Positions 30,891 to 59,905 of a DNA stretch of 64,000 nucleotides are shown here, in pieces. Within the stretch, counting starts at the first letter, position 1. The number at the start of each line of letters is the position of its first letter. The notes under the pieces were generated by a model. It worked only from the letters and a program-made list of their open reading frames with translations. It made no database searches and was not told where the DNA came from. This DNA comes from Dipteris shenzhenensis (Eukaryota). The stretch lies in NCBI GenBank assembly GCA_047967505.1, contig CM106538.1; one strand, 5' to 3'. The translations under genes and the position numbers were made by a program.

Positions 30891-31060
30891 GTCATCTTTT
30901 TTGGTAGATAGAACTGTGCCATAAAATGACAATTTGAGCTCTTCTTGAACCATGTATCAAAGTTTTCTCAATAGCAAATATTAATACTAAATTTTTGGGG
31001 AATGGCAAGAAATTAAGCTGAAGTATATTCTAGCTCAATATAGCTACCTGCTCGGAACTA

Positions 31061-32067
31061 GTTGTATATGTGTGTTGGAGTGTTCACATGAAAACCTCCA
31101 AACTATATACAGTGAACATTCACCCGTAAAAAGTATTTTCTCAATTTTATAAAATCTACAAAATTTTAGGCAATTTAGTTATATTTTAGCTAAAAATCGA
31201 CAAATTCTCGGGAAAAACCTTCAAATTTTAACACCCTAACTTTTGTGATTTGTTGAGAAAAATGTTTTTTGTGAACACTGTGTTGGTTACACATATGCAT
31301 ATGTGTATGTATGTGGTAGTCTAAGAGTCAAAGGGTGGTAATCAAAGAGGTAGTTATAGTCAAAGAGTCCAAGGGTGGCGTGTGGTACATTTCCTAAGCT
31401 CTTCTCTTTCTCTTAGAAGTTAAAAACCCATCCTCTTGCTTTTTATCAATGTGGCTAATAGGTAGAATAGATGCCTTTGAGTAATGGGATTATGAGGAAT
31501 CTTTTATATGTGCTCCTTCCAAACCCTGCTTTTGGGAGAACCGTCGCCACTATGTGATGTTTACACATGGTAGCTAAAAAATATGGTTAGAAGGTTGTTG
31601 CCAAAAGCATAACCACATAGGTTCAAATCTTGACTTCTGCAACCTGCCAAATTTTCTAATTAGTTAGAGCTATCTTCACCTATACTTGAGGAGGGGGTGC
31701 CCATCCTCCCAACCCTAGTAAAAAAAATTTTAGTTTTGCTTTTTTTGACATGAGGATTTCTCCAAGCAAGGAGAGTCACCCAAGAATAGTTTGACCTTGG
31801 TTGTGTTCAAAGTCTTAGGTGACTTTGATGTAGTGAGAGAATATTTCCTTATTATTGCATGAGAGAATGGATGCTTCTTCAAAGCAACAAACAAGACAAT
31901 TTAAAAGCATGTCAACTATGTCCAAAGTTTTAAAGTGAGTTTGCACTTGGAAAAAGCTTAGAAGAAGCATAGAGCTCATAGTGTTTCCCAATATGACTTT
32001 TGAAGTGGGAGGTTGGAAGTGGGCAAAGAAAAAATTGGTCTTAGAGTTTCTCCCTTACACATACAAC
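31061..32067. mobile_element. Putative ~1-kb non-autonomous element or solo LTR
   Basis: Imperfect inverted ends (GTTGTATATGTGTG ... CACATACAAC). Both ends recur, joined together, at 40358-40579. No TSD found. Confidence 0.45.
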
Positions 32068-37080: not shown

Positions 37081-38595
37081 CAGGCACAAAACATGAGTTA
37101 TTTTACATGGGAGCTCACACCTGCAAATATTTTCTCCAAGCTTTTTCGCGTTAAAAATCCCTTATATCAAGTTTTGGCACTATGTATTGTAAGTCTTTCC
37201 CTTTTTATTTAAGTCTCTCGTATAAAGTTTTGCTATGTATTGTAAACCTTTTAAAGAGTTATTTTTCTTATAATGACATGGCAATCATGGTAAACTCATG
37301 GCATACCAAGATGGCGTGTTTTCTCACTGAACATTTTAAGCAACCTTGGTCCCCTCGAGTGACACTATGACTCTTGGTTCTCCATTGGTGACCTTTGATC
37401 CACATCATGGCAGTCCAATTCTTGTTCTACTTCAATATCTCTTGGAGTTTCTCACTAAGCTGACACGCATCCAAATTCTCAAATTTGGAACTTTGACTTC
37501 GGAAAGTCCTCCTAGTTCTTACAAATGAGCTCATTGGTCTAGTTTGACTTTTGAACTGGATTGTTGATGTCACTCCAAACACACTGGAGCTGTAAATGAG
37601 CTAGGCCAAGTACCCAATGCTCCAAACCAAGCACTATATTCCATCGCTCCTCCTGTGGTGTCAGTATACACTCCTTTAAATTGTCCTTCTGCCCAAGAAT
37701 GGCATCATGTTCCATGATCACATTCTGTGCCATATGCTGTTACCAAGATGTCCCATGTACACTATCAATCACAATCTCCTCCAAAATCCACGATCCTTCA
37801 ACATGTTATCGACAAATTGACAAAGAACCTAGGATGATGAATACCTTACAGGGCCAAGCAAGCTATATGCCACCACAAACATAGTATTTCGTCCCCTACT
37901 TGTGACGGACAACTCAACATGGAGTACATATTACTGATGGGTGAAGGTTGCAATCAACATGACATCTACCTTATTCTCTTCAAATGGAGAAACTAAGTAT
38001 GTGTGTTTGGGGGGGCGGGGGGCATCCACGTGCACACGCTATCATTGTCACATATCAGACATCCAAAAGCTTTTTGGTGCTATTCAAGAATATTGCTTTA
38101 AAGGAAACTGATTATAAAAGACCTCCATAAGCAACCATCCTCTCAAAATTTTAGAAAAATTGAGGTTAGTACCAACCAACGAAACCACTTTGCAGTAATA
38201 GATGAACTTGTATAACGACTTATTAAGTTGTTTTTGAATCCGTTTTCACATGCTATTTTCTTAGTGGCTCTTTTTTGTTTATGATAGGGTGTTTTTTTTA
38301 AGGGCCTCACCCATGCTCTAAGAGTGCTTGACTGGGTATGGTTGTAAGCTAGGGTTAAGTTGAAAGAGAAACTAGACACCTTTTCATAACAGAAATTAAG
38401 TACAACATGTGTGAGTACTACTTGCTATGTCTGTCATGAAGAATCAAGATGTAACAATGGGCCAGAATAAATAACAAGGGCGCACATCATGTGCTCGGAC
38501 AACACTACTTTGTTTAACTTTTATGGAGTAGATCGATTATTGATGTGGAAGGGGAGAGCGAGCTCATGCAAGAGAGAGAGAGAGAGAGAGAGAGG

Positions 38596-39288
38596 GCGGG
38601 GGGAGAGAAAGAAAATAAATAAATTTTATTAAAAGTCTTTGGAAGACCAAGAGGGTCTATGAGACTAATAAAGAAACTGGTACAATGAGCTGAGGGTGGA
38701 GCTAGCATCAGCACCCATGGTGAGTACAAATAGAAACCCAAAGTCCCGAATCGTAATGGCATCTTTACACAGTAAGAGTTCTCTGGGCTCTCGGAGTGGG
38801 AACAAAAACAACTATCAACTCTAGGAGGGGGGCGTCAATGTACGAGGTTGATGTGTCCATGATAGGTTCGTAGCGACTATCAACAAGTGTGGTCCGTTGT
38901 GGTCTCTTGACTATAGCCCTGCAACGAACGACTGCTACCATCATTCCTGTGAGTTTGGTGAACGGGGAAGGGAGGTCCGCAAGTGTGATATGTGCCTCTA
39001 TTGCCTGCGGGTCCGGAGTGTCTCTAGCTCTAGCTTGGGTCCTCGAGGTCGCCCTCTCCATGGGTCTTGCCGATCAGTGCTATTTGGTTGGAAAAACTCA
39101 GTGATCGTGCTCTGATTGGGGTTTGGCTGTGTGGCATGGTCCTCTCTATGTGTTCTAAGTAACCGCTCCCTATATTGGACAACCTCATGGATGAAGGCCA
39201 CCAGGATAGGAAGCTAGATAAAGATCCATGATCGTGTCTGAAAAGGCAGTAGTAGTGACCTTTGATCTCATAGGCACTCTCTAGGTAT
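38596..39288 (-). mobile_element. 5'-truncated LINE 3' end (RTE-like) embedded in (CT)n
   Basis: Minus strand reads AYEIKGHYYCLFRHDHGSLSSFLS...VAFIHEVVQYRERLL, like a LINE ORF2 C-terminus. A 3' UTR follows with AATAAA and a (CT)n tail. (GA)n tracts lie on both sides. Confidence 0.55.
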
Positions 39289-39472
39289 GAGAGAGAGAGA
39301 GAGAGAGAGAGAGCTCTTAGTGTCCAAAATTGATTGGGAGAACACTTTTATGAAAATGTTAGTAGAGCGGCTGCAAGGCACCGCTTTAAAGAAAGAATAG
39401 CAACTCCAGACATGCTCTTTGAACGTCAAATTAGACTAAGGTGGAAAATGGCGATACAATCGTATTTCTTAC

Positions 39473-39610
39473 TAGAGAGCCATTTTTCGGTACGCTGCCT
39501 TTATTTGCTGTTCAGATGCATCTCGAGGGACATTCAAGACTTCGTATGGATCCCTTCTCAGCTTTGAAGAAGTGATTACATCTTCCTCTGATATGGCTTT
39601 GATTAGACAT
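39473..39610 (-). pseudogene. Orphan duplicate of DnaJ exon 1 (copy 2)
   Basis: [39 protein letters not shown] with the GT donor kept. A 5-bp deletion just after the ATG shifts the frame, and AA>TA occurs at the exon end. Confidence 0.9.
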
Positions 39611-40579
39611 TCTTCGTGCCGAATTAGACGATCAAAATATATTACGTGCTTTTGTGGTGTTGAATAGAACACAAAGTTTTTAGCTGCACCTAGATTCGTC
39701 TGGCATCAGTAGCCCACTGCTACGTCAGAAACCGCAGGCAGAGATCAACATCAAGCTTTGGCTTTGACGCGGCTCGATAGACAACTCCCAAATGGATGCT
39801 ATGGTTACGCTGCAATCCGCCGCGTCGTTAGAGAGAGAGGTCGTGTGCTCAAAGACTTCCATGGAGCATTTATTGACAAAAGGTGTGGAAACGAAGCGTG
39901 TACTTCTAGGTGAATATGATCGCGGGTACTGTTGCGAGAGCATAGACACAATCGCCATAGCATGCGGCGGCTAGTCATGTCTTGTGCAAGCAACGAGTCA
40001 CGCCTGCTGAATATCTCCATAGCTAGAAGCTCCTCGGCCTCGTAAATTCCTGATTCAAATCATTCGCTCCAAATTCAACTTCCTGAGCTTAATACCTCCG
40101 AGATCCTCAAGCCCAAAGCTCCATATCACCAAGCGCCTGAGAGCTTCAATATTGATGCTCCATAGCAGCTGAAGTCATCTTGGCTTTTGAGAGCGAGAGG
40201 GGAATCGCTTTGCATGGGCGCTCCCAAGAAGTTGGTGCCGAGAAATGGACACAAATATGTTAAAAACTACTCGAAATGGATGTCGAGTCACGCTTACAAG
40301 CTATCAAGGAATGTATGTGTATTATGTCCATGTGTGTGTGTTTTTTTTTTTGTGAACATGTATATATGTGTGTTGGAGTGTTCACACGAAAACCTGCAAA
40401 CTATACACAATGAACCTTTATTCGCCCATAAAAAGTATTTTCTCAATTTTATAAAATCTACAAAATTTTAGGGAATTTAGTTATATTTTAGCTAAAAATC
40501 GACAAAGTCTCGAGAAAAACCTTCAAATTTTGACGCAACGAAAAAATTGGTCTTAGAGATTCTCCCTCACACATACAAC

Positions 40580-43500
40580 CATGGACCAGGCCGCCCCAGG
40601 AAGAAGGTATCCTTCTCAGAGCCCTTAGATGCTGAGATGGCAGACCCACCAATAGAAAAGACTAAAAGATCTTGCAGGAGTAAGTGGTCGCCCTTGGATT
40701 TTTCCATCGGCTCGAGGCAAGAGGACTATTCGGTTGTTCAGGATCTTGCTCATCGGTCTTTGAGCATCACGCTCCCTCAACTAATAGCATTAAGCCCTAA
40801 GGTGAGACGTGAGCTGCAGTAAGGGCTCTCAACAAGGAGGAGCAAGAAAAAGGGAAAGGTGCGAGAGGTCTCTTCTATCTCTAAAGAAATTGATCGGCAC
40901 CCACATATAGTAGATGTCATCATAGAGAATTGCTGTGTCAAAAGTGTGTGTGTTGATGGGGGAGCTGCATGTAATATCATGGTGCCCCGAATCATGAAGA
41001 AATTGAATTTGAAATGCACAAGGCGTTCCTCCACTTGAATCAAGGTAGCAGATGGTCGACGACTCGCCACCCTGGGAGTCATTGAGGATTTTCCCATCAC
41101 TGTCAATGGGTTGACCACCACCATCAATTTCTATGTAGTGGACATCGAAGATACAGGTAGGAGTTTCCCAGCCATACTCGGGAGACCATGGTTGAGAAAG
41201 AGTGATGCAGTCAGCTATTGGAAGATAGGACACATGTCTTTTGGTGCTTCTAAAGAGAAGATCCCGGTGCAACCAGGTGCCACGAAACCAGAAGAAGAAG
41301 AGGAGTAAGACAGTGATACTCTCTCATGCTCTGTGTCTGAATTAATGGAAGAATCAGACGGGGGGGAGGAGTTCTCAGAGGAGAAAGTTTACATGATGGG
41401 GGTGTCTTCGACCCCGCCACTTGCAGAAAAAGTAACAGCTAGTCCTCAATAGCTTGAATCTATGCTTTCCCCTGACCTCACTCCGAGTGAGAAAGATGAG
41501 TTCCTAGAAATGTTCAAAGATTTCCCTGACCTCTTTGCAACTAGCTACCACCACCTTCGCCATGTGACTGCCATAGAACACAAGATAGAGCTGAAGCCTG
41601 ATGCTAAGTCTGTGGCTCAGAAGTATCGGAGATTAGGGCCCTTACAGACCGATGCTTTGTGCTCAGAGTTGCAGAAACTTGTAGAAGCTGGGTTTATTGT
41701 TCCGGTTCACAATACTGAATGGGTTTCACCAGTGGTAGTCACCCCAAAGAAAAACAAGTGGCGGGTCTGCATCGACTATAAGAAACTCAATGCAGCCACC
41801 AAGAGGGACCATCATCCTCTTCCCTTTCAAGACCTCATTCTTGAGAAGGTAAGTGGTCATGAGATGTATACTTTCTATGATGGTTACCAGGTTTTATCAA
41901 ATCAGAATTGCTGAGGAGGACATGCTTAAAACCACATTTGCCACACCTTGGGGAACATTTGCATTCAAAGTAATGCCATTTGACCTCACCAATGCTCCTG
42001 CTACCTTTCAAACATTTATGCAGATGGTGTTTGCTCCTTATTTGGAGGTTTTCTTGGAGGTGTTTTTAGATGATTTCTATATATTCTCGGCATGTAAGGA
42101 GCACGTCATGAAGGTTAGGTTGGCCTTCCAAAGGTTTAATGATGCAAATGGCAGCCTCAACCCTGATAAGTGTACCATTGGAGCCACTCAAGGGAGGTTA
42201 CTGGGACAAATTGTCTCATCTGAGGGCATTAACCTGACCCCGAGAAGGTAGAAGCTATCCTCAAACTCTCCCTGCCAACAACCAAACGTCAGGTATGCTC
42301 ATTTGTCAATCTAGTAGGATACTATCGCTGGTTCATTGATCGATATGCTGCTTTGACGCGACCCATGACTATGCTATTAAAAGATGGAGTTGATTTCTCT
42401 TGGGATGAGGATTGTGATCATGCGTTTGTACAAATCAAGAGTGCTCTGGCTTCAGAACCCATTCTACACAATCCTGATTAGTCAAAGACTTTCTATATCT
42501 TGGTGAGCACACTCTGGCAAGTTTTCTTCTCTAGCAAGGGGAGGATCGGTTCATGTGTCTCGTTCGATTTGCTTCTCGATAAATGCTCGAAACTGAATGA
42601 TGCTACTCTGAGGCTAACAAGCATGCTTTGTCTTTGGTGTTCTGCATTGAGAAATTTAAGCATTATGTGGCTGGAAAGTCCTTTATCATAATCTGCAGCA
42701 ATGGTCTTGCAAAGCAGGTTCTTCAATCACCAAATCCCATGGGCCGGTTGGCCAAATGGTTGGCAGTTTTACAAGAATATGATTTTTCTTTCAAGATTGT
42801 AAAAGGGGGTTGTTCCAACTTGAAGAATGCTTTGATTGATTTAGAGGAGGGCCTCGATGTAACCCTTGTAGCGGCCATAGAAGTTGGGGCTCCATGGTAT
42901 GGTGGTATCTCTAGGTTTCTGACCGCTTTCTCCTTTCCTCCAAAAAGTACTAGCTATGAGAGAAAGAAAATCCGTAGAGATAGTAGGCGCTATACTCTCT
43001 TTGATGGGGTGTTATACCGTCAAGGCCTGGATGGGGTACTAAGACGGGCCATTGATGCAAATGAAGTACCTAAGGTATTGAAGCATTATGATGGATTTTG
43101 TGGAGGCCACTATGCCAGTGACTATACAGCTAAGAAGCTTTTACATGCTGGGTACTATTGGCCAACCTTGTTCAAGGATGTTACTATGTATTGCAAAACT
43201 TGTAAACCATGCCAATTCTTTGGTAGGAAGGATTTGTGTCCTGGGCAACATCACCCAGTGATGTCCATCCATCCATTTCAGAAGTGGGGAATAGATTTTG
43301 TTGGGCCCCTGCCCATGACTGCCCGCAAAAAGAAGTATCTTTTGGTAGCCACTTAGTATGTCACTAAGTGGGCTGAAGCTATCACCCTCCCCACTTTAAA
43401 TCGTAAGGCAGTTTCAAATTTCATATTTGAACGTATCTACACAAGGTTTGGGACACCCATGGAAATAGTATCTGACCATGGGAGTCCATTCTTAAATGAA

Positions 43501-44379
43501 GCAGTGGAGTTGCTCATGGATCGCATGGGTATTGATCACTGCACTTCTAGCATCTATCATCCAGCGTCCATGGGACAAATGGAGTGGACCAACGGCCTCC
43601 TTTGTAAAACCATGGGGAAAATGGTCACAAGGAACAAGAGCCAGTGGGATCAGAAGGTCACCAAAGCCATGTGGGCTTACAACATCACCCATACAATGTC
43701 TACAGATCACACTCCTTTTGAGTTGGTGTATGGTACTGAGGCAGTTTTACCACTAGAGATAGAGATTCCGGCCTTGAGATTGGCACGAGAATAGATGACA
43801 GAAGATGAACATGTAGAGGCCAGGTTGGTACAACTTGAGAAGCTAGATGAAACCCGACGCCTTGCACTCCATCAAATAGAGATCCAAAAGAACCGACAAA
43901 AGGCCCGCATGGATGCTGAGATTCACAAGGGATGGGAAAGACACTTTGCTGAGGGGGATGTTGTGCTATGCTTTGATAACAGATTGGACCACGAAATGGA
44001 TAAGAAGTTCCTGCCACTATGGACTGGTCCATACAAAGTCATCAAGGAACATAGCAATGCGTCTGTACAAGTTCAGGAGTTGCATGAGCCATATGGCAAG
44101 AAGGTGATCAACAAGCATTATCTCAAGCCCTTATTTGTGCGTGATGGTCCCAGGCATGGAAATGCTATGGGGGGGAACTGTTATGGATAAATTTGACCAA
44201 AGTTAAAGGCATAAATATGTGTGTGTGCTTGTATGTGTGGCAATAGTATAATAAAATATGGTGTGCATAAGGCCCAGGGATGAGGTGGCAGGGCATGACC
44301 ATGTGCCACCCTTCCATGTAAGAGGACCCATAAGGTGTGTTGTACATAATCCATGGTAGTATTAATATAAAATGATAAG
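40580..44379 (+). mobile_element. 5'-truncated non-chromovirus (Athila/Tat-like) Ty3/gypsy: pol, PPT and start of the 3' LTR
   Basis: Protease VDGGAACNIM...ILGRPWL; RT EWVSPVVVTPKK...IDYKKLNAATKRDHHPLPF...FLDD; RNase H; integrase HPFQKWGIDFVGPLP, SDHGSPF, WTGPY. PPT GGGGGGGAAC, then LTR TGTTATGG at 44179. Confidence 0.92.
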
Positions 44380-44408
44380 GGGAAGTAGCAAGCTAAGGGT
44401 GTCCACTT
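44380..44408 (+). repeat. Left terminal inverted repeat
   Basis: GGGAAGTAGCAAGCTAAGGGTGTCCACTT. Confidence 0.95.
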
Positions 44409-45720
44409 TTTGTTCACTCCCCAATCCTTAGGAGGTGGAAAAACAAGCTTTTTAGCACACAAAAATGCAAATCTCACCTACTTCCCTATGGATCTAGTCT
44501 TTGAAGTCTTCAGACACAACATCACACATGCTATTGTGCACACAATCGTATAGTCTGATCGAAAATTCGATGCACACAAAAAAAATTTATTTGTGTCACA
44601 CGGCATGGTTCTAGGGCGGTCACACCTTTGTCACGAAAGTATCATATTAAATTCTAAATTTCTCACTCATTTTAGATTAAATGTTATTGAAACTTTGTAG
44701 GTGGTCTCTTTACATTATGAGAGCTTAACTTGATTTATTGGTAATTATTTGAATGATTTATCTAATTATAAATAATTATTTATAATAAATAAAGTCATAA
44801 AATACATGCATTTTAGTAGCACACCACATTTTTTTAGTATTTTGAATAATTAAGCAAATGCAATTCGGTGGAAGGTCAGTAGGCACATAAGGGTGTGTGG
44901 TTCAATCATCAAATCCCAAATCCAACGGTTAGATTTAGGAAGATTGAAGTTTAATTTTTACTTTTACTCCTTAGAGGATCAATAAAGAATATTAAAAATA
45001 AATCTAGTAATTCTCAAACATGACCAAACATTTCAAAAATGTCAATATTTTTAGTCCTCCGCATGATGAATAAGAGGAAAAAAATTTGGTTAAATTTGAG
45101 TAAGGGAAACATACAATATGGCCTCCAAGAGTGAAATCTTCCTTTTGTGAGGGAAAAAGGGCCACCCAAGCCTAATACCAAGACAAGGTAGGCTTGGTAT
45201 TAGGCTTGGTGAGGTAGGCTAGGAGCATCACTGACTCTAGTGGCAAGCCTTTGGAGTGTGCATGCTGCCCATGTGGAAGGCTGAGTCATCTATTTTTGCC
45301 TGCAACCATGCCACGTTGTTAGACCGCATGGTGCCATGTCATCAAGGAGATGTGACATCACTCCTTGCCATGTCACCTTAGATTGCCACACGTGCTGCCA
45401 CATCAGCCACATGTGCCACCTCATCATTCCATATCATAGGAACTCTTGGAGCCATGTCATCACACCTTGCCACCTTGGCATACCTCGTCAACCTTGCCAC
45501 ATCACCAATCCCTCCACCTCAATTTGCCATGTCAATCTACCACCTCATGAATGCCAACTCATCATGCCACATCACATTTCCACGTCATGGAAGAGACTCA
45601 TATATTCCACTCCATATTGCCACATCATCACCATGCATGGTGCCACATCAGCCACATGTATACACATCATGATGATGGCGAGCCACATCATCAACATGCA
45701 TGGTCATGTGATTTGAGTGC

Positions 45721-45898
45721 GTGAGGCATAGAATACCACGATCAAGGTTTATGACCACGATGTGTGCGAGGCATAGAATACCTCGATCGAGGTTTATGAC
45801 CGCGATGTGCGTGAGGCATAGAATACGTCGATCGAGGTTTATGACCTACGTGAGGCATAGAATACCTCGATCGAGATTTATGACCACGATCGAGGTAT
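45721..45898. repeat. About 4.5 tandem 39-45-bp units, each with the palindrome ACCTCGATCGAGGT
   Basis: G(T/C)GAGGCATAGAATAC units start at 45721, 45766, 45811 and 45850. Confidence 0.92.
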
Positions 45899-46261
45899 TT
45901 GGAGGTATAGGCACATATGTTATGTGAATATTAAATTGAAATAAAATCAAACGATGCAAATATTCGAAATTAACATTGGATTCCATGTATATATAATATG
46001 ATTAAAATCAACTTATTTGAGTAGACCACAAAAATTAGTTTCAAAACAAAATCAAACGTAATTTTAGTAGCCAATTAGTTTCAATCTTAGCACCTTCTCC
46101 ACCAATAATAATCAAGAGCAATCTAGTGGATGAGTAAGAGCAATCTAGTGGATGAGTTGAGGCTCTCTATAAGACACCACGTTTTGGTTCATTTCACCCA
46201 TTCTTAGCCATTCTTGCCTCCCCATCACTTTGTCACACCTTCCATCCTACTTTCATTGAGA

Positions 46262-49202
46262 ATGGGTTCTCAAAGCCGTAGAGCTAGTAGACGTGAAAGA
46301 TGTAGGAACCCCCCCCAAATCTCATTGATGAGGAGTGCAAGCGGAAGGCTCGTGAGTGCAAGAGAGCCTCTAGAGCTAGAGCTCGCGCTGCCACCACTGA
46401 TCCACCTCCACCTCTACATCCCACCTCCACCTCCACCTCCACCCCCACCCCCACCTCCATTGTCCCCCCCTCCACATCCTCATCTGCTCCCCTACCTCCA
46501 GTCTCCGCCCTTCCCCTAGCCACCTACATTTTGACCTCCACCTCTACCTCTTCCCCCTCCACCCTCCCCCCTCCCCCTCCCCCCCTTCCCCTTGGTGCCT
46601 CCCTTCCCCCCTCCACCCTACCATCTCCCATTGATCCCCTTGCCCCACCTTGCAGCAGCAGTGTTGCTTCACGACGTGACTTGCTGAAGTCCACTATCCG
46701 TCGTCGTACTAGCAAGATCGTACAGTCTTTTTTTAGTGACCTCACGCCAGCTTCGCAGTCTGCTCTTCTCACGTCCCTGATTGATCACCCTGACTTGGTA
46801 GAGTGTAGGAGGCTTGCTGGTCTTGGTGCACGTAGAGATAGGGTTGTATGTAGCGAGGTCCTTAGCAGTGTTCGACGTTCCTATGCTTCTATTAAGCATA
46901 GGAACTCTAGTGATGCCTTGGCAACACGTCGTGCTATTGTGGCTGCCATTAGTAGACCTCATATGATAGGCCATGTGCGTATCGCTTCACATCTTCAGAT
47001 TGCACCGCGCACATTGCGAGCAGGCATGATTAGGAGGCAGAGTCTAGAGGATAGTGAGACTGATGCTCTTTGGGCTTCGAGTGGTTGTGCACCTCGCAAC
47101 AATTGATTGTTGGATGATTCCACTAGGTCCTTCATACAACAGTTTTGGGAGGAGCATTGTAAAGCATCCCCGGTGTTCAAGAAGGCATTGCAGAAGAGGG
47201 TGTCATGCGGTGTGTACATTGAGCATGGTGCATGTTTTTTGGAGTGTACCCAGACAGAGTTGTACACTCAGTTTGTAGAGGCACACCCGGAGTTCAGGAT
47301 TGGGCAGAGGTCATTTGAGCGATGCAGAGGTCATTTGAGCGATGCAGGCCATGGTTTATGCGATGCTCTCAGGAGCGTGACACATGCTGTTGTCGCTACC
47401 ATGTGGATTTTGGATTGATGTATGACATATTTCGTTCCCTTGATGGTCATAGGGGAGTGGTTCCTACTAGCCCTCACGACTTCATTCATTGCATATTGTG
47501 TACACGAGATGGCGATGCTTTATTCCACTCCCTTGATTGTGTGGAAGGTAGGTGTACTTTGTGTGGTGACTTTGCTGGAGTGCCACGAGTTGCACTAGAT
47601 ACTTGTGATGTGCAAATGGTTTGTTGGCAGCAGTATGAGTGCAGTACCTTGACATTAGATGGTGGTGCACAGTCGAGGAGGTTGCAGCTTGTGGGGAAGG
47701 AGACACCACATGTTGTATTCATTGATAGTTTTCGAGGGAAGCTGTACTGCTACATACACCACTCGCACATTGCGAAGTGGGAGGATCGTCAGTTTCGTGC
47801 ATGTTTGAGGACATTTCCTATAGGGGTGGTTGTCTCAGTGGTGGACTTTGCAGAGAATTATACCTTTGCACCATAGCATGAGATCCAATTGGAGTATTAT
47901 TTCTCCGAACAGGTGACGTGTGATTGAGTTATTGGTTTTTTTATGGCCTCATTATATTGAATTATTTCAATAGTCATATTTTTTTTCAATGCCATATTGC
48001 AGGTTGCTATATTTGTGCACATTAGCTATCGTCATGCACAGGCTCATGTGGATGGGATTGATAGCACCATGGACTCACGTGTCATTGTGCGAGAGTATCA
48101 CTTCTACATTAGTGATGATCGATCGCATGATGCCCATTTTGTGCAGCATTGCTTCACTTTGCATGATAGTTTCTTGAGGGATCATGGTGTCACATGGCAG
48201 TGGCACTGGATCTGGTCAAACAGCTGTGGTGGTCAGTTCAAATCTGCTAGACACGTTTATTGGTTTTGCAGATGGCACTGTGAGACAGGCATTCCGATCA
48301 CATGGAGCTACTTCGAGACAAGGCACGGTAAGGGAGAGCATGATGGTGTAGGTGCTTGTGTGAAGCGTGCTTTGCGTCGATACCAGTTGCATCACAGTGC
48401 CGATTGCTTCAAGGATGCACATGATGTGGTGCGGTGGTGCAGCCAACACTTATCCACTAGTGCTATCTCCTCATTTTAGTCGCGTGATGATAGGGTGGTG
48501 AGCCAGTATTTTTGGTGCATGGATATTGGGAGTCTTGATTGGTCCAGGCCTTTTGATTGTTGTTCAGTGTCTGGCACTCTTGATTTCCATTTCATCAGGA
48601 GCATAGGTGAGTCTCACCCCGCGATCTTTTCTCGACGGTTTGCATGTTTTTGCTCTGCATGCATTGATGATGATTGGGGAGGGTGCTCCATGATACCATG
48701 GGCCGATCCATGGGCACGGCAAGTGCTTTCTCCCTTCCAGCCTTGGGAGGAGGTACATGATGATCAGGATGCAGGATTCAGTTCCTTTAGAGATTATGAC
48801 CAACTTATAGATATGTTGCGTATTGGTGATATCTTCGCGGTCAATGCTTCGGAGGGCAATGAGGAGGGTGTGGATTATTACTTGTTGCGATGCTCTATGG
48901 TGAAGAGTGTGCTGAATGAGGATACAGTGGATGGGCATGGGATGCACTTCAATGCTCGTAGCATGATTATAGGTGGCCACTATTTTCAGCAGATACAGAG
49001 GCGTGGTCACTATATTGAGTTCCAAGAGTACATGGCGGATCAGAAGGCATACATGTATTCTCATCTTGTTGTTGTGATCAAGATTACTTTGAGTCGTGTT
49101 CGCACTTGCAAGGCGACATCCACTCCACGATGGCGCCTTGCAGTGGAGGATCACGGGAGCATACTTGCAACTATTGGCATGAGAGCCGATCCTGAGGAGT
49201 AG
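46262..49202 (+). pseudogene. Sola2-type DDD transposase; two exons (intron 47913-48002), disrupted
   Basis: TATAA at 46168 and ATG at 46262. Pro-rich N-terminus, Cys motifs TCCCRYH and CVEGRCTLC, then VVDFAENY...EIQ.EYY..EQ|VAIF...ISDDRSHD...WSNSCGGQFK...WSYFETRHGKGEHDGVGACVKR, and C-terminal ACFCSAC. Lesions: TGA 47104, TAG 47874, TAG 48477, a 20-bp duplication at ~47304-47343, and a stop plus frameshift in the Pro tract. Confidence 0.85.
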
Positions 49203-49519
49203 CACATTACATATCATAGTTTTGGGATCATTAGTTGATCAGATAGATGTTTATTGGGTATCACTAGTTGATTTCATATTTTTGTATTCGATATGTATAG
49301 GCTCACTGTGTGACCGTACCATTGTAATTTTCATGGACTCATATTTTGTATTTCACTATGATGGTTGTATAGACGTTCATACACATCATTGTATTAGATT
49401 CTATTTTATACATGATGTCCGTTGTCTTCTCAATGGGATTTGCTGTTTTTGTTTAAAAAAAAATTGTTTATTAGTAGTAATGTTGTAATTGTGTTTTGTG
49501 CTTTAGGACATTTTAAAAA

Positions 49520-52380
49520 TGTGACTAAGAAAATTCGTGCATGTACTAACCAAATATGCATGTTGACTTATCTGTTGGGGATTAAACTTTGCACGGCTCT
49601 TAGGCTACCCTAGATGTACATCCATGCAAGATTTGGTCTCTAACTAATTTGGTATGTGCCACATGGAAGGTATAATGCGTACATTTTTACAATCCCTGCT
49701 AGTGACTACGTATGAAAAATGGCGCACGTACTAACCAAATAGGCATGTGGACTTATATGTTGGGGATTAAACATTGCACGGCTCTTAGGCTACCCTAGAC
49801 GTACATCCACGCAAGATTTGGTCTCCAACTGATTTGGTATGCACCACATGGAAGGTATAATGCGTACATTTTTACAATCCCTACTAGCACAACTATGTAT
49901 GAAAAATGGCGCACGTACTAATGAAATAAGCATGTGGATTTATCTGTTGGGGATGAAACTTCGCACAGCTCTTAGGCTACCCTAGACCTACATCCACGCA
50001 AGATTTGGTCTCCAACTAATTTGGTATGTGCCATGTGGAAGGTATAATGTGTACATTTTTGCAAGCACTCCCTACTAGTGACTAAGAAAATTCACGCACG
50101 TACTAACCAAATAGGCATGTGGACTTATCTGTTCAGGATGAAACTTCGCACGGCTCTTAGGCTACCCTAGACCTACATCCACGCAAGATTTGGTCTCCAA
50201 CTGATTTGGTATGTGCCACGTGGAAGGTATAATGCATACATTTTTGCAAGCACTCCCTACTAGTGACTACGTATGAAAAATGGCGCACGTACTAACCAAA
50301 TACGCATGTGGACTTATCTGTTGGGGATTAAACTTCGCACGGCTCTTAGGCTACCCTATTCCTACATCCACACAAGATTTGGTCTCTAGCTAATTTGGTA
50401 TGCACCACGTGGAAGGTATAATGCGTACATTTTTACAATCCCTACTAGCACGACTACATATGAAAAATGGCGCACGTACTAACGAAATACGCATGTGGAC
50501 TTATCTATTGGGGATGAAACTTTGCGCGGCTCTTAGGCTACCCTAGATGTAAATCCATGCAAGATTTGGTCTCCAACTGATTTGGTATGTGCCACGTGGA
50601 AGGTATAATGCATACATTTTTACAATCCTTACTAGTGACTACGTATGAAAAATGGCGCACGTACTAACCAAATAGGCATGTGGACTTATCTGTTGGGGAT
50701 TAAACTTTGCACGGCTCTTAGGCTCCCTAGACCTACATCCATGCAAGATTTGGTCTCCAACTGATTTGGTATGCGCCCCGTGGAAGGTATAATGCGTACA
50801 TTTTTACAATCCCTACTAGCACGACTATGTATGAAAAATGGCGCATGTACTAACGAAATACACATGTGGACTTATCTGTTGGGGATGAAACTTCGCACGG
50901 CTCTTAGGATCCCTAGACCTACATCCATGCAAGATTTGGTCTCCAACTGATTTGGTATGCACCATGTGGAAGGTATAATGCATACATTTTTACAATCCCT
51001 ACTAGCACGACTACGTATGAAAAATGGTGCATGTACTAACGAAATAGGCATGTGGACTTATATGTTGGGGATGAAACTTCGCATGGCTCTTAGGCTACCC
51101 TAGACCTACATCCATGCAAGATTTGGTCTCCAACTGGTTTGGTATGTGCCACGTGGAAGGTATAATGCGTAAATTTTTCAATCCTTACTAGTGACTACGC
51201 ATATAAAATGGCGCACATACTAACCAAATAGGCATGTGGACTTATCTGTTGGGGATGAAACTTTGCGCGGCTCTTAGGCTACCCTAGACCTATATCCACG
51301 CAAGATTTGGTCTCCAACTGATTTGGTATGTGCCACGTGGAAGGTATAATGCGTACATTTTTACAATCCCTACTAGCACGATTACGTATGAAAAATGGTG
51401 CACGTACTAACAAAATACGCATGTGGACTTATCTGTTGGGGATGAAACTTTGCATAGCTCTTAGGATCCCTAGACCTACATCCACGCAAGATTTGGTCTC
51501 CAACTGATTTGGTATGTGCCACGTGGAAGGTATAATGTGTACATTTTTCAATCCCTACTAGTGACTATGCATGAAAAATGGCGCACGTACTAACCAAATA
51601 GGCATGTGGACTTATCTGTTGGGGTTGAAACTTTGCAGGCTCTTAGGCTACCCTAGACATACATCCACACAAGATTTGGTCTCCAACTGATTTGGTATGT
51701 GCCACGTGGAAGGTATAATGCGTACATTTTTACAATCCCTACTAGCACGACTACGTATGAAAAATGGCGCACGTACTAACGAAATATGCATGTGGACTTA
51801 TCTGTTGGGGATGAAACTTTTCACGGCTCTTAGGCTACCCTAGACCTACATCCACGCAAGATTTGGTCTCCAACTGATTTGGTATGTGCCACGTGGAAGG
51901 TATAATGCGTACATTTTTCAATCCCTACTAGTGACCGCATGAAAAATGGCGCACGTACTAACCAAATAGGCATGTGGACTTATCTGTTGGGGATGAAACT
52001 TTGCGCGGCTCTTAGGCTACCTTAGACCTACATCCACGCAAGATTTGGTCTCCAATTGATTTGGTATGTGCCACATGGAAGGTATAATGCATACATTTTT
52101 ACAATTCCTACTAGTGACTACGCAGGAAAAATGGCGCATGTACTAACGAAATAGGCATGTACTAACGAAATAGGCATGTGGACTTATCTGTTGGGGATGA
52201 AACTTCGCACGGCTCTTAGGCTATGCTTGACCTACGTCCATGCAAGATTTGGTGTCCAACTGATTTGGTATGTGCCACGTGGAAGGTATAATGCGTACAT
52301 TTTTACAATCCCTACTAGTGACTACGTATGAAAATGGCACATGTACTAACCAAATACGCATGTGGACTTACATGATGGGG
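49520..52380. repeat. Tandem array of about 15.5 x ~185 bp inside the transposon
   Basis: The CATGTGGACTTA anchor recurs at 49559, 49744, 49931, 50116, 50305, 50492, 50677, 50863, 51049, 51233, 51420, 51603, 51789, 51971, 52175 and 52359. Confidence 0.97.
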
Positions 52381-52580
52381 ATGATTTTGGACCAATCGTA
52401 CATAATCATGTATTAATGTTTGACACATGTTACTACCAATGAGCACCATTCCATGCTACACATTGCCATTTTTTTCTTAATCTACAATTTACAAAAATTA
52501 GTGGCAATATTAGTGTAATAATTGCAAGCATTGATATATATGAAATTCAATATGATATTCAAAATGATAAAGTTCATAGC

Positions 52581-52582
<2 letters not shown>

Positions 52583-52651
<69 letters not shown>
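52583..52651. repeat. (GA)n microsatellite, about 34 units
   Basis: Uninterrupted GA run. Confidence 0.95.
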
Positions 52652-52655
<4 letters not shown>

Positions 52656-52980
52656 TACTTGAACACCTTTTCAATGCTTAATGTTTATAATTACTTCACA
52701 CGGCATTATTTTTAAAATACCTTATGTATTATATGTGTGAATTGAGATATCTAAAATTCAAAATGATACTCCTAATTTTAAATGTTTATGTTAGATTTGA
52801 ACAAACTATAAACTGAGATAAACAAAGTAAGAAGAACATCATGAAAGTACCAAAATGCTCATATATCATAAAAGTAAGAACAACATCATGAGAGTACCAA
52901 AATGAATGTGTACATCATCATCATCATCATCATCGTGCAGAAGTGCATCCCTAAACAAGATATGTGTGAAGCCTAAACAA

Positions 52981-55900
52981 TCATCCTGAATCAGAATCTG
53001 ATAACTCCACATATGATCTTCTAGTCATCCTCTAACGTGGCTCCTGTATGACCCGCTGTCCAACCGTTCGCTGTGTGCCCTCAGGCAAAGCCGGATTAGA
53101 TGGGCCAGCCTCATCTCCTGGAGCAAATGGGCTAGCCTCATCCTGATGAAGAGGAGGGCATGCTGCACGAGCCACTGCTACCATCTCTGCCTCCCTCGCC
53201 TCCTCTATGTATGCGCGCCTCAGCTCCCAAAGTCATTCATCTGTGAATACTCGTGCCTCAAATCCAGTGTGAGTAATCATCTCTACATGTAGAAGACACT
53301 GGTCTTGACCTCGCCCAAGCTGCTGCTCCACCCACTGCTACAATGATATATGAAGCTCTGCCTCTTGCTCAATATGACATGCCTTCTCTGCTTGTGCCTC
53401 GTCACCTGGCATGAAATCACCATATGAGAAGCGTCATGAAACACATGCTGCAACCACTGAAGTATCAGTACCCTCCTACTGCAGCAACGCTCTCTGTGCC
53501 TCCTCCCTGTAGTGCTCTATCAAGACGACGTGGGCAAATGGATCAATGGCCTGACGATGACCAGGATATAGATCATCCATGCCTAGTCCTCTGTATGTGG
53601 CCACATCAATGTCAACAAAGCATATAAGGCACACTGATCATGCCACCATGTGGTGGGTCATGCAATGGAGATGTGTGATGTGGCCGCACCCTAGTCCAAA
53701 CCACACTACGGTGTCAAAATCCTCATGGCAAAGGACGCAAGTGGCAGTAGGAAGCCCGTGACTGGTGCATCTATGGGTGTCCTAGTCGGCACATCTACAG
53801 GAGGAGCGGGGTATAGGGCCACACTGGGGTCGATCCTATGGCGATATGGATCACGACTAATATGTCTCAACTGCAAAATATAGTGCTCCGCTTGGTGGTA
53901 GGCTATGCATGTCCAAATCCTCTGCTCCTCCAAATCTACCTCCAACTGTCGTACACGAGATGTCGTACACGAGAGTCCACATCCTGTCACAATAGATGTG
54001 CTTGCCAAGCAAACATGTCGCGTACATGGTGAGAATGAACCAAAAAACTTCAGTTCAAAACACGCAACAAAAAATTAAACTAAAATAATCAGAATAACTA
54101 ACCTTGACCCTAGACTTAGCCAACAATGCCTCCAACTCTGCAATCCGTGCATCTCGAGTATCCAACTCATGCTGAGGCGGTGTAGATGTGGTTCGAGGTG
54201 GTGTAGATGTGGGAGGCTCCATAGATGTGGGAGGTGGGGGAGGTGGAGTTGAAAGTGATCTCGATAGGGCAGAGACCATGTCGTGCAAGGATGAGGCCAC
54301 TGAATGAACATCCCCCCTAATCCGTCCTCCAACAGCTCATAATGCTAGTGCAGGGATAGTGTGCAGCTTTGGTGCCTCGCATCGACACCGAACACCTGTA
54401 GTCTGATGCTCCTGACGCCCCATCCTACCATGTCCCACTCCGGATCCTGGACGGGTACTAAGGTAGTCTACCTGATGACCAAGCACAAACTCAACGTATA
54501 GCTGCATGGCAAATGACCTGGCTATTTGACGGTTGTGAGGCAATCGACCACCATTCGCAGCGAGATATCTCGAATAAATGTGTGCTGCTATGACGGGGTG
54601 CCTACAACGTAAAATATAAAAGGGCAGCCTTGATCATGGTCACATCGCCTCAGTGTGACCATCCCAAAACATATCCTCTAAGGCCTGCCTATGAGGTGAC
54701 TCATGCTCAAACAACTCTTGAATGGCTCTCCAATCCAAGCCATGACCAGTGATCTCTGCCTCAGCCTGTGCCTACAAGGTATCCAAAATGTCCTCAACTG
54801 TGTCTAATCGACCTAGAGCATCAATGACTGAATCTAGACTCACAACCAAGTGAGGGGGTGCCCTAGCATCCTGCAGTGCCCTCATCTCAGCTCTCAAAAT
54901 CGCTATTTGCATACGAACAATGGTGCCAGAATGGCTAGTGCATGCACAAAAAAAACACATGGAAATTAATATTCTATTTGGATAATGAAAATTAATATTC
55001 TATTCAATCGGACTTAATAATCTATTTATGTAATGAAAACTTTTAGGTAGCCAATTTTGATTGAATTTTTGCAAAAGCTCATGACAAGGTTTCATGGAAT
55101 TACATAAGTCTTTGTATTTGTCTATGTAACTATATCCATACATAGATCTACAACCTTCCCTAGTTCCCTATTTCTATAGTTTCACGTGCCACCTAAAGGG
55201 ATTGCATGCCACATGACCTACCCTCTCCTATTTGTTTGATTGATTACACTTAGTCATGTACTCCTTGATGAGGTAGGATGTCGTTGGGATCATCCTATGC
55301 ACCTAGCGGTAGATGGGCCAAATGTGTGGCTATGCCTACAACAGTGCTATGTTGCAAATGCAACACATGCACTCCCTACATGCTCTAAGTTGCTCCACTC
55401 TTCAATGGAAGATGCACACAAAATAGTTATTTAACGGTGTTATTAAAAAAGGGATTTAGATACATCCTTGGTCTTATTTCATTTTCAAAGAAATTTCAAA
55501 CTTCGTGTTAAAGATGCTACACTTCCCTAATTTGAAAAATAATATAAAAACTACTTTAATCTCTTTTTTAAAATAAACGAAATAGATGATTTTAAAAAAC
55601 AAAATATATACGTTTTGACATTTAAATAAAAACTTCACTAACTTGAAAAATAATATAAAAGCTACTTTAAACTCTTATTTTCTTTTTTTTAATAGATGAT
55701 TTCTAAAAACAAAATTTAAACGTTTTTATATTTAATTCAAAACTTCACTAATTTAAAAAATAACATAAAAACTACTTTAATCTCTTTTTTTTTTAATAGA
55801 TGATTTTAAAAAACAAATATATTTATTTTTTGACATTTAAAAAAAAACTTCACTAACTTAAATAATATAAAAGCTACCTTAAACTCTTATTTTCTTTTTT

Positions 55901-56281
55901 TTTAAAATATGATTTTTAAAAATAAAATTTAAACATTTTTTTATTTAAATAAAAATAGCACTAATTTAAAAAATAACATAAAAACTACTTTAATCTCCTT
56001 TTTTAAAATAGATGATTTTAAAAAATAAAATATATACATTTTCACTTTAAAAAAAAAAACTTACGTAATAAAAAAAATAAATTAAAAAAACTTTAAAATG
56101 CATTTGAAATTTTAAAATATTTTACAATTAAATTAGATATTCCTATAAACTAAAATTTCACAAAAAAAAAAGCTACATTAAAAAAACCTTACCTGGAATC
56201 CCTCGCTCCGTCCATCTTCGTCGTTGTCCATCGGTCCTTGTCTGTCGCTGCCACAATTCCGTCGAGCTCTCGCAAATCCAT
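52981..56281 (-). pseudogene. Transposon accessory gene: unknown domain, Pro tract, coiled-coil-like segment and RING-H2 finger; spliced, disrupted
   Basis: TATATAAA at 56346-56339 and ATG at 56281. Candidate exons 56281-56193, 54934-54103 and 53983-~52981 have phase-compatible GT-AG ends. ORFs 54772-54960, 54337-54543 and 54055-54300 share one frame broken only by TAG/TGA. CVLC-x13-CGHITHLHC-x10-CLIC at 53739-53620. Confidence 0.72.
55520..56060. repeat. AT-rich tandem repeat, about 5 x ~108 bp, in the first intron of the accessory gene
   Basis: CTAC(T/C)TTAA anchor at ~55551, 55662, 55772, 55874 and 55985. Confidence 0.85.
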
Positions 56282-56299
56282 CGATTTTGATGAGAAGGA

Positions 56300-56935
56300 G
56301 CTCGATCGAGGTTTGAAGAATGACGGGGGGTCCCTCTCTTTATATACAAAAATTTAGGGTTTCACTACCTTGATCGAGGTATTTCACATGCCACATACAC
56401 ATCGATCCATCATACCTCGATCGAGGTATAGACATGCCACGATACCTCGATCACATGCCACGATACCTCAATCAAGGTATTTGACATGCCTCATATACAT
56501 CGGTCCAGCATACCTTGATCGAGATTTTGACCTGCCACGATACCTCGATCGAGGTATGTCAGTTGCCAGCTGGATGCCACATACCTCGAACGTGGTATTG
56601 GATATGCTGCCAAGTCATCGGGCCAGCATACCTCGATTGAGGTATGTGGACTTGCCACAGTACGATCGAGGTATGTCATCTACCATGTCGGATGCCACAT
56701 ACCTCAATCGTGGTATTTGACACGATCGATGTCATCTATCCACGATACCTCAATCGAGGTATGTGGACTTGCCACAATACCTCGATCGAGGTATAGGTGG
56801 CTTGCCACGATACCTCGATCGAGGTATAGGCTCGGTTCGGTGAAAGAAAGTCTAGGACCTCGATCGAGGTATTGGCTTGGCTCGGTTGTCCTTGTGTGTG
56901 AATTTCATTGGAGACAATACCTCGATCGAGGTATT
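56300..56935. repeat. Cluster of about 16 copies of the 18-bp palindrome ATACCTCGATCGAGGTAT
   Basis: Perfect copies at 56412, 56540, 56777, 56810 and 56917. The others are variants or half-sites with variable spacers. Confidence 0.93.
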
Positions 56936-56995
56936 TCACACCGAAGCAAAACCTTTGTATTTTCACTCGAGGGGGTGTCACACTCACCCGTCCGG

Positions 56996-57024
56996 AAGTG
57001 GACACCCTTAGCTTGCTACCTCCC
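56996..57024 (-). repeat. Right terminal inverted repeat
   Basis: AAGTGGACACCCTTAGCTTGCTACCTCCC. Confidence 0.95.
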
Positions 57025-57028
57025 TAAG

Positions 57029-57833
57029 GTGGCATGGGTCCTCCATACACCACCCCTCCACCTAGGCGGTCCCCACGCCTGCATTTAGTGAGATATGGCC
57101 CAAGGACCATGGGAGAAGTAATATAAAATAGGTGGAGATGGATATTATATTGGATTATTCCCTCCATGTAGGATAGGCCGATGTGGTGGGGGGTATAGAA
57201 AGTCCAAGAATGCAAGTTAAATAATGGGAAAGTAGGATGAGGTGGCAAGATTCCTTGTGCCAACCCTCCACTTGTCCTCCTAGATGTTTGAACGTATTAT
57301 AAAATTGGGAAGAGGCCAAGGGAGTATCTTAGACTTGGGATATGGGGGTTGATATATGTGGAAAAATGAGGCAAAGGGTTGTCACACACAATTGAGAGTG
57401 CATAACTGCCTAGCCCACATGGGACACTCTTCCAGACACACCATGCATGTGGGAGGATGCATTTATTGGGAGAGACCCCCTCTCTTCGCTATAAAAGGAG
57501 GGGGCTATTCCTTGATGGAACACGCTCATTCTTGTAAAGCCACCTAGTTAGTAGTTTGATTTCTTCCCCCCCATCCTTCCTTTCAAATAAAGCATGACCC
57601 TCCTCCCTTGATGTCTCCATCTCTACATTCCTCGTCCCATTATGTACATGCTCCTCTTTCCCCTCTCCCTCTTCCCTTGTGCCATAGTCTCCCTCTTCAT
57701 TCCCACCCCTCTTAATCCCTTTTCCCCACCCATGTTAATGCTTCTCCCCTCACGTTCCCTTTTCCTACATGGCCCTCGAGTGTCGCCATGCCTAGCGTCT
57801 AGCCTCTTGTCTCGAATTCTTTTCTAGTTAATA
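57029..57833 (+). repeat. Continuation of the gypsy 3' LTR split by the Sola2-like insertion (end uncertain)
   Basis: Follows the TSD. Shares motifs with 44250-44345 (ATAAAATA.GGTG, CC.TCCATGTA.GA, GGATGAGGTGGCA). TATAAAAGG at ~57490. Confidence 0.65.
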
Positions 57834-58176
57834 GTACCAACCAACCAAACCAATTTGGAGTAATACATGAACCTGTACAATGACTTATTAAGATGTTTCT
57901 GAATCTGTTTTCACATGCTATTTTCTTAGTGGCTCTTTTTTGTTTGTGATAGGGTATTTTTTTAAAGGGCCTCACCCATGCTCTAAGAGTGCTTGACTGG
58001 GTATGGTTGTAAGCTAGGGTTAAGTTCAAAGAGAAACTAGACACCTTTTCATAACAAAAATTAAGTACAACACGTGTGAGTACTACTTGCTATGTCTCTC
58101 ATGAAGAATCAAGATGTAACAATGGGCCAGAATAAATAACAAGGGCGCACATCATGTGCTCGGATAGCACTGCTTT

Positions 58177-58220
<44 letters not shown>

Positions 58221-58939
58221 CCGGGGGGAGAGAAAGAAAAGAAATAAATTTATTAAAAGTCTTCGAAAGACCAAAAGGGTCTTTAAGACTAATAAAGAAA
58301 CTGGTACAATGAGCTGAGGGTGGAGCAAGCATCAGCACCCATGGTGAGTACAAATAGAAACCCAAAGTCCTGAATCATAATGGCATCAGTACACGGTGAG
58401 AGTTCTCTGGGCTCTCGGAGTGGGAACAAAAAGAACCATCAACTCTAGGAGGGGGGCGTCAATGTACAAGGTTGATGTGTCCATGATAGGTCTGTAGCAA
58501 CTATCAACAAGTGTGGTCCGTTGTGGTCTCTTGACTATAGCCCTGCAACGAACGATTGCTACCATCATTCCTGTGGGTTGGTCCCTAGTTTGGTGAATGG
58601 CAAAGGGAGGTCCCCAAGTGTGATATGTGCCTCTGTTGCATGCGGGTCTGGAGTGTCTCTAGCTCTGGCTTGGGTCTTTGAGGTTGCCCTCTCCATGGGT
58701 CTGCCAGTCGGTGCTATCTGGTTGGAAAAATTCAGTGATCATGCTCTGATTAGGGTCTGGCTATGTGTCATGTCTCTACATGTTCTAAGCAACTGCTCCC
58801 TATGTTGGACAACCTCATGGATGAAGGCCACCAGGAATCTCTGGTTTAGGTAGGATAGGAGGCTAGATAAAGGTCCATGACCATGTCTGAAAAGGCAGTA
58901 GTAGTGACCTTTGATCTCATAGGCACTCCCTAGGTATGC

Positions 58940-58987
<48 letters not shown>

Positions 58988-59905
58988 TCTTAGGCGATGA
59001 GTGTCCAAAATTGATTGGGAGAAGACTTTTATGAAAATGTTAGTAGAGTGGCTACCTTGCAAGGCATCGCTTTAACGAAAGAGTAGTAACTCTAGACATG
59101 CTCTTTGAATGTCAAATTTGACTAAGGTGGAAAATGGCGATACGATCGTATTTCTTACTTGAGAGCCATCTTTCGGTACGCTGCCTTTATTTGCTGTTCA
59201 GATGCATCTTGAGGGACATTCAAGACTTCGTATGGATCCCTTCTCAGCTTTGAAGAAGTGACTACATCTTCCTCTGATGTGCCGAATTAGATGGTCAAAA
59301 TATATTACGTGCTTTTGAGGTGTCGAATAGAACACAAAGTTTTTAGTTGTGCCTAGATTCGTCTGGCATCAGTAGCCCACTGATACATCAGAATCCGCAG
59401 GCAGAGATCAACATCAAGCTTTGGCTTTGATGCCACTTGAAGCTCTAAAAAATGAATGGTATTCTTGAGAGGAATCTCGATAAACAACTCCCAAATGGAT
59501 GCTGTGGTTACGCTGCAATCCTCTGCGTCATTAAAGAGAGAGGTTGTGTGTTGAAAGACTTCCATGGAGCATTTATTGACAAAAGGTGTGGAAACGAAGC
59601 GTGTACTCTAAGTGAATATGATAGCGAGTATTGTTGCGAGAGCATAGACACAATCGCCATAGCATGCGGCAACTAGTCATGTCTTGTGCGAGCAACGAGT
59701 CACGCATGCTGAATATCTCCATAGCTAGAAGCTCCTCGGCCTCATAAATTCTTGATTCAAATCATTTGCTTCAAATTCAACTTCCTAAGCTTAATACCTC
59801 CAAGATCCTCAAGCCCAAAGCTCCATATCACCAAGCACCTCAGAGCTTCAATATTGATGCTCCATAGCATCTGAAGTCATCTTGGGTTTTGGAGCTATCA
59901 TGGAT
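57834..59905. repeat. Local segmental duplication, copy B (paralog of 38168-40190)
   Basis: Colinear LINE 3' fragment (58212-58941, minus), (GA)n tracts, DnaJ exon 1 and upstream region. Confidence 0.93.
59159..59278 (-). pseudogene. Orphan duplicate of DnaJ exon 1 (copy 3), start codon deleted
   Basis: [40 protein letters not shown]|gtaag; the ATGTCTAATCAA segment is missing. Confidence 0.9.

Follow-up and report, generated by a model that had tools for sequence, protein, structure and literature searches.

A RING-H2 finger relic within a terminal-inverted-repeat transposon of Dipteris shenzhenensis

Several plant DNA transposons with terminal inverted repeats (TIRs) carry a second gene; examples are the Myb-like open reading frame (ORF) of PIF/Harbinger elements, TnpA of CACTA elements, mudrB of MuDR and VANC of VANDAL elements. 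To our knowledge, none of these genes encodes a RING finger. The subject of the present study is the relic of a RING-H2 finger in a stretch of 64,000 nucleotides from Dipteris shenzhenensis (contig CM106538.1 of the NCBI GenBank assembly GCA_047967505.1), which is referred to as the window in the following. The finger belongs to a decayed gene, the RING gene, which is enclosed by a 12.6-kb TIR transposon (positions 44380-57024). Like the accessory genes listed above, the RING gene is a second gene inside the TIRs and is found beside a putative transposase gene, which is called gene 1 here. Full-text literature searches on transposon-encoded RING or E3 ubiquitin ligase proteins listed no plant DNA transposon with a stand-alone RING gene.

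With respect to the finger, the closest described proteins are RING-H2 E3 ubiquitin ligases of the zf-RING_2 family such as RNF38, the RNF165/Arkadia-like proteins and RNF12 as well as the plant proteins EL5/ATL and RMR1. The window finger has the same C3H2C3 ligands in standard spacing, and proteins of this group are the best matches in the Protein Data Bank (PDB), both by sequence and by the modelled fold of an intact relative, P0010. In contrast to these ligases, the family of the window gene possesses a coiled coil at the N-terminus, where those ligases have a transmembrane or other module, a motif of its own after the finger, a long acidic tail predicted to be helical, and a transposon context. 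The coiled-coil RING dimer RNF8 resembles P0010 in having a long helix in front of the RING, the dimer of P0010 being a model only; however, the window family lacks the FHA domain and has no sequence relationship to RNF8 outside the finger. An N-terminal RING that is linked to a cut-and-paste system is also found in RAG1 and Transib-derived recombinases. In RAG1 it belongs to the recombinase polypeptide, whereas the RING of the window has a gene of its own, located on the opposite strand, and is not related to RAG1 in sequence. The finger itself is an ordinary RING-H2 finger; what is unusual is the architecture of the protein and the fact that it is encoded by a second gene of its own within a TIR transposon.

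For the element as a whole, the best lead is the Sola superfamily. According to a passage of a review, Sola elements possess a DDD transposase, produce 4-bp duplications, have TIRs of 11-1124 bp and reach sizes of more than 15 kb; they are known from the moss Physcomitrella and are described there as seemingly uncommon in flowering plants (PMC10741241). In a passage of a second article, the Sola transposase is stated to be without a Pfam model (PMC5751038). As far as these passages go, the window element shares with Sola a 4-bp duplication (TAAG), TIRs (29 nt), a large size (12.6 kb) and a gene 1 that has conserved acidic motifs and no Pfam family. The likeness is one of description, and Sola is a lead rather than an assignment.

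The RING-H2 finger, its relatives and the decay of the gene

The initial annotation of the window described a hidden RING-H2 finger with all eight ligands, and the peptide given for the minus frame at 53760 is reproduced exactly by translation. The ligands are spaced C-x2-C-x13-C-x-H-x2-H-x2-C-x10-C-x2-C, with the codon of the first ligand Cys at 53739 and that of the last one ending at 53620. A broad and a strict regular expression for the finger, both tolerating no more than one stop, were applied to the six reading frames; each of them matched once in the whole window, at this same site, and neither found a match in any of 200 dinucleotide-preserving shuffles. The Pfam model zf-RING_2 (PF13639) recognizes the window copy with an E-value of 3.3e-4, the other RING models of Pfam ranking behind it, and among solved structures the RING of RNF38 is the best match by sequence (E 0.002), the matches to RNF8 being weaker (E 0.086-0.1). 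The absence of the pattern from the shuffles, the Pfam E-value and the match to RNF38 exclude a chance arrangement of Cys and His residues. The finger pattern is real, but the window copy is eroded.

Relatives were collected with HMMER, which was run exhaustively on 1.84 billion representatives with a query of 249 codons, which extends from just before the finger to 53035 and in which stops were written as X. Fifteen relatives were obtained at E ≤ 0.001, six of which have E-values of at most 1e-10. The best of them, P0010 (388 amino acids, E 1.2e-18), covers query residues 13-249, i.e., the finger and the whole tail of 190 residues. P0015, a protein of 85 amino acids without a RING, matches the C-terminal tail alone (E 1.3e-12), and the homology therefore rests on more than Cys and His residues. 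P0013 is 59% identical to the query over residues 9-72. The tail belongs to no Pfam family, and a Foldseek search with a model of P0010 gave no match to it. A Protein Atlas search with P0010, which is used as a lead only, returned generic RING clusters exclusively, all with scores below 0.9. P0011 carries an N-terminal KIX_2 domain (E 1.6e-24), a plant domain; domestication, a chimeric origin or a fusion in the gene model could account for this protein.

Fourteen relatives, 12 of which span the finger, make up alignment A1. P0022 is a two-RING protein of different architecture (E 5e-5) and was hence omitted from alignments A1, A2 and A4; A4 also excludes P0015 and the window row. The initial annotation had named conservation of the ligands among copies as a check of the finger, and all eight are kept in 11 of the 12 finger-spanning relatives. 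The exception is P0013, which has Tyr at four of the eight ligand positions. The motif directly after the finger is conserved among the relatives as well, and several of them retain the Pro after ligand 7 and the Arg after ligand 8, which we take to be positions of contact with the ubiquitin-conjugating enzyme (E2). A match to a RING-family model of Pfam at E ≤ 0.01 is present in 12 of the 15 relatives.

The RING gene extends on the minus strand from about 54999 to 52981, and tblastn comparisons of all relatives with the window detect a single locus (53978-52990, minus strand). P0010, P0011, P0012, P0014, P0018 and P0019 each match it in two abutting pieces: one in frame -3, which ends near 53757 and comprises the last part of the coiled coil together with a conserved stretch in front of the RING, and one in frame -2, which starts at 53739-53754 and comprises the finger and the tail. 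It follows that a frameshift lies in the roughly 18 nt that precede the first Cys. On the upstream side, the ORF 54074-53709 is open, and residues 50-106 of P0010 match 53936-53757 at 42% identity. The upstream exon region is matched by residues 18-71 of P0020 (54621-54457), colinear with the RING match of the same protein (pairwise E 2e-4). On the downstream side, residues 115-386 of P0010 and 92-366 of P0018 align to 53739/53742-52990, and the gene closes with a terminal TGA at 52983-52981 after an acidic end, which matches the ends of P0010 and P0018.

Between the finger and this end, the reading frame is interrupted by six premature stops: the TGA in the finger, four more as far as 53035 and a TAG at 53034-53032. 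Three of the six stand at Arg or Gln columns where relatives cover them, and such stops would be of the kind expected from C-to-T decay. At the column of the finger TGA, 13 relatives have Arg (seven), Gln (two), Leu (two), Phe (one) or Ala (one); the origin from CGA, which had been put forward for this codon, is plausible in view of the seven Arg residues. The notion of a single TGA holds inside the finger but not for the gene, in which the frameshift, five further stops downstream in the exon and four stops in the upstream exon are added. It was also seen correctly that the finger is invisible in the ORF track; the two open pieces comprise 47 and 53 codons. With the frameshift and no fewer than six stops, the window copy cannot yield a protein; it is a pseudogene, which does nothing today.

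The enclosing transposon and its surroundings

The two TIR arms of the transposon are complementary at 28 of 29 positions, and the tetranucleotide TAAG is found directly outside both of them as a target-site duplication. The chance of a 4-nt match is 1 in 256, and a reading of the duplication as TAA with a 1-nt difference in the TIRs is also possible. A perfect palindrome of 18 nt has 18 matches in the window when up to three mismatches are allowed, all 18 of which fall into two subterminal zones, with none expected from 100 shuffles. These copies are likely binding sites for the transposase. From left to right, the element contains gene 1 on the plus strand, a 187-nt tandem array, a (GA)34 run, the RING gene on the minus strand and an AT-rich tandem array with a unit of 110 nt; gene 1 and the RING gene are convergent. 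The finger had been assigned to the second gene of a transposon, and its location inside the TIR pair agrees with this; for this locus, the assignment is well supported. The coordinates of all features are listed in Table 1.

Table 1. Features of the RING gene and of the enclosing transposon in the window
Feature	Coordinates	Strand	Basis
RING-H2 (C3H2C3) finger relic	53620..53739	-	translation, regular expression control, Pfam zf-RING_2, alignment with 12 finger-spanning relatives
In-frame TGA between ligands 6 and 7 of the finger	53638..53640	-	translation; aligned residue Arg in 7/13 relatives
Zone of the frameshift between pre-RING region and finger	53740..53757	-	tblastn, two pieces per relative
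Pre-RING part of exon 2: end of coiled coil and conserved stretch ending LYP	53758..53945	-	open in its own frame
Post-RING motif and C-terminal tail, five premature stops	52981..53619	-	alignment with P0010, P0018, P0015
Intron, GT-AG, T-rich, 157 nt, joining exon 1 to exon 2 in frame	53946..54102	-	inferred from sequence and frames
Upstream exon(s): coiled coil, proline-rich, four in-frame stops; 5' end uncertain	54103..54999	-	same-frame run
Left TIR, 29 nt	44380..44408	.	TAAG outside at 44376-44379
Right TIR, 29 nt	56996..57024	.	TAAG outside at 57025-57028
Left subterminal array of the 18-nt palindromic motif, 5 copies	45733..45898	.	motif scan
Right subterminal array of the same 18-nt motif, 13 copies	56365..56934	.	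motif scan
Gene 1, decayed, Pfam-less, putative DDE/D transposase	46636..49199	+	P0004 alignment
187-nt tandem array between both genes, 15.2 copies, 88% matching	49539..52384	.	
(GA)34 run	52583-52651	.	

The left array of the palindrome is located about 1.3 kb inside the left TIR and thus much deeper than the right one, and a higher-order period of 372 nt scores slightly better for the 187-nt array. Just outside the ends of the transposon, a similarity of 40 nt in direct, not inverted, orientation is present (44278-44317 and 57235-57271), possibly a module that recurs within the retrotransposon around it. In addition, the TIR is similar over its initial 10 nt to a motif of the right flank.

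Gene 1 aligns to residues 79-919 of its relative P0004 (942 amino acids) at 47-51% identity. Its reading frame is shifted once, near 47325, and is interrupted by stops at about 47104, 47874 and 48477; like the RING gene, gene 1 is dead. The relatives of gene 1, one weak member of which is named as a hypothetical protein of Taxus chinensis, are 324-942 amino acids long and have strongly conserved acidic motifs common to the family (alignment A3); in one of these motifs, the window has Asn where the relatives have Asp. The clusters for which they stand contain between 4 and 420 sequences, sizes which are as expected for a repeated element. The Taxus name and the KIX_2 domain of P0011 are the sole direct hints of seed plants.

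The transposon is surrounded by Ty3/gypsy sequence, with reverse transcriptase, RNase H and integrase domains at 41853-43791. Direct repeats of 2 kb at 38167-40194 and 57832-59895, which are 85.5% identical, flank these gypsy pol domains. The repeats show no clear TG...CA ends, and a long terminal repeat (LTR) retrotransposon at 38167-59895 is therefore a working description only. A partial third copy of the 2-kb repeat (24553-25460 with 31065-31232) extends into internal sequence and is split by an insertion of 5.6 kb (25461-31064), which contains dense arrays of a 21-nt unit and 80-nt repeats at 29645-30819. The remainder of the window likewise consists of nested gypsy elements; among them is a compact Ty3/gypsy chromovirus at 11616-17990, which has long reading frames, terminal repeats of about 95% identity and domains for capsid, protease, reverse transcriptase, RNase H and integrase as well as a chromodomain.

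Predicted structure and role of intact members

The structure of the intact relative P0010 was modelled with AlphaFold2 from 15 sequences. The local confidence score (predicted local distance difference test, pLDDT) is about 90 for an N-terminal helix (residues 2-72) and 76-86 for the finger (residues 115-165), and the tail is partly helical at low confidence. Among the matches listed, a Foldseek search of the PDB with this model gave overwhelmingly RING domains of E3 ligases, many of which were solved together with an E2 (RNF12, RNF165, RNF38, gp78, HRD1, EL5 and RMR1). RNF165 aligns with a template modelling (TM) score of 0.85, normalised to the target, and a root-mean-square deviation of 1.7 Å over 51 columns.

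A homodimer model of residues 1-180 of P0010 scored 0.50, the best control reaching 0.00. Of 30 proteins solved as pairs of one chain, 20 reached the mark for a dimer, as did one of 23 proteins solved as single chains, the corresponding values for eukaryotes being 17 of 29 and 0 of 30; the P0010 model used an alignment of its own, and these benchmark counts are thus only rough for it. The runs agree in at least 74% of the contacts, the partner chain has a pLDDT of at least 67, and the contacts are in register along the helix, including the finger region, with the two chains in parallel. Since coiled-coil RING dimers have already been solved, the passing score may reflect memory of, or likeness to, these structures rather than the behaviour of P0010 itself. 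On the basis of these models, intact members of the family are probably dimeric coiled-coil RING-H2 proteins.

An intact gene product would have a length of about 370-390 residues or more and would consist of the N-terminal coiled coil, the RING-H2 finger, the post-finger motif and the helical acidic tail. Like RING-H2 domains in general, it would recruit a ubiquitin-charged E2, and it would probably act as a parallel coiled-coil dimer, as the models suggest, with the tail as a candidate for the substrate-binding part. An E3 activity is what one would expect from the family only.

Origin of the gene and its meaning for the transposon family

The evidence makes it probable that the segment is what decay has left of the zinc-finger core of the second, convergent gene in an old 12.6-kb TIR transposon, which is nested in Ty3/gypsy sequence. 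A number of observations weigh against this interpretation, one of them being that the linkage between the RING gene and the transposon rests on one locus. Word-index protein searches with a finger peptide of 101 residues and a read-through of 655 residues retrieved no relatives. A zf-RING_2 match, which had been named as a further check of the finger, is borne out for the family but not for the window copy: the latter scores 21.3 bits and falls short of the curated cut-off of 27.3 bits, whereas eight of the 15 relatives reach it, and the family qualifies as zf-RING_2. The AlphaFold2 model of P0010 is mediocre as a whole (mean pLDDT 63.7, predicted TM score 0.35), and its Foldseek E-values lie between 0.01 and 0.1, none being ≤ 0.001 because only about 50 of the 388 residues align. 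As for gene 1, the scan found no Pfam family in it and the assignment as transposase is unproven; the AlphaFold2 model of its relative P0007, made from eight sequences, is poor (mean pLDDT 46.7). A Protein Atlas search with gene 1 pointed to DUF7869 clusters (score 0.96, 214 of 256 shared features), which is a lead only; the DUF7869 model of Pfam matched none of the six relatives scanned (P0003-P0008), and a search for full-text papers that mention 'DUF7869' found none. Finally, P0010 and P0018 look complete and unbroken and P0011 has the KIX domain, so that some relatives could be host genes.

The last-mentioned proteins, unbroken or fused to KIX, would fit a RING gene of a host family which was picked up whole by one element through transduplication, decayed neutrally and never served the transposon, and the capture of host genes by plant DNA transposons is well known. 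However, the whole gene is present, its N-terminal region being common with P0020 and its C-terminal end with P0010 and P0018, and it is part of a convergent two-gene layout. Moreover, the nearest relatives P0013 and P0015 are decayed too, P0013 with a frame history that differs from that of the window copy, which suggests several dying copies. A neutral capture by a single element is thus rather unlikely, though it keeps some weight; the RING gene may also go back to a host gene which the element captured long ago. More improbable still is that the RING gene belongs to another unit, either as an additional antisense ORF of the Ty3/gypsy element around it or as part of a further element nested in the transposon. 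Extra antisense ORFs are known from plant gypsy elements, and the region lies between the 2-kb direct repeats which flank the gypsy reverse transcriptase, RNase H and integrase, but the RING gene is found inside the 29-nt TIR pair and between both arrays of the palindromic motif, and a self-comparison of the window reveals no pair of LTRs or TIRs that bounds the RING gene alone. A chance pattern of Cys and His codons in non-coding DNA, to which the sub-threshold Pfam score and the stop in the window copy might point, is refuted by the 200 shuffles without a match and by homologues with E-values down to 1.2e-18, the similarity of which extends far past the finger; its probability is close to nil. 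Returning to the convergent second gene of the transposon, we infer that the RING gene is a regular accessory gene of the transposon family and not a one-off passenger.

A more far-reaching proposal, which we regard as tentative and on balance doubtful, is that a stand-alone, dimeric coiled-coil RING-H2 ligase serves as accessory gene product, of a kind not described before, in a Sola-like family of DNA transposons in seed plants, is kept under selection across deeply diverged lineages, and ubiquitinates a host factor, for example of the silencing machinery, or the transposase of the element itself. The initial annotation had already proposed that the protein could target silencing factors or control the turnover of the transposase, and both ideas are still speculation.

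A transposon has few means of influencing its host, and its accessory genes are among them; the anti-silencing VANC proteins are an understood and informative case. If the proposal were true, a ubiquitin ligase encoded by a DNA transposon would parallel the RING E3 ligases which many viruses use against host defences. The importance of the finding is limited by the fact that the window copy is dead and that the link between the gene and the transposon comes from one locus. The element is of interest in itself: it combines a 4-bp duplication with a Pfam-less putative transposase, in a plant genome that seems to be large, and may belong to a superfamily which, in the review passage mentioned above, is described as uncommon in flowering plants (PMC10741241). 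Taken together, the coiled-coil RING-H2 family and its possible role as an accessory of a transposon constitute a moderately interesting lead.

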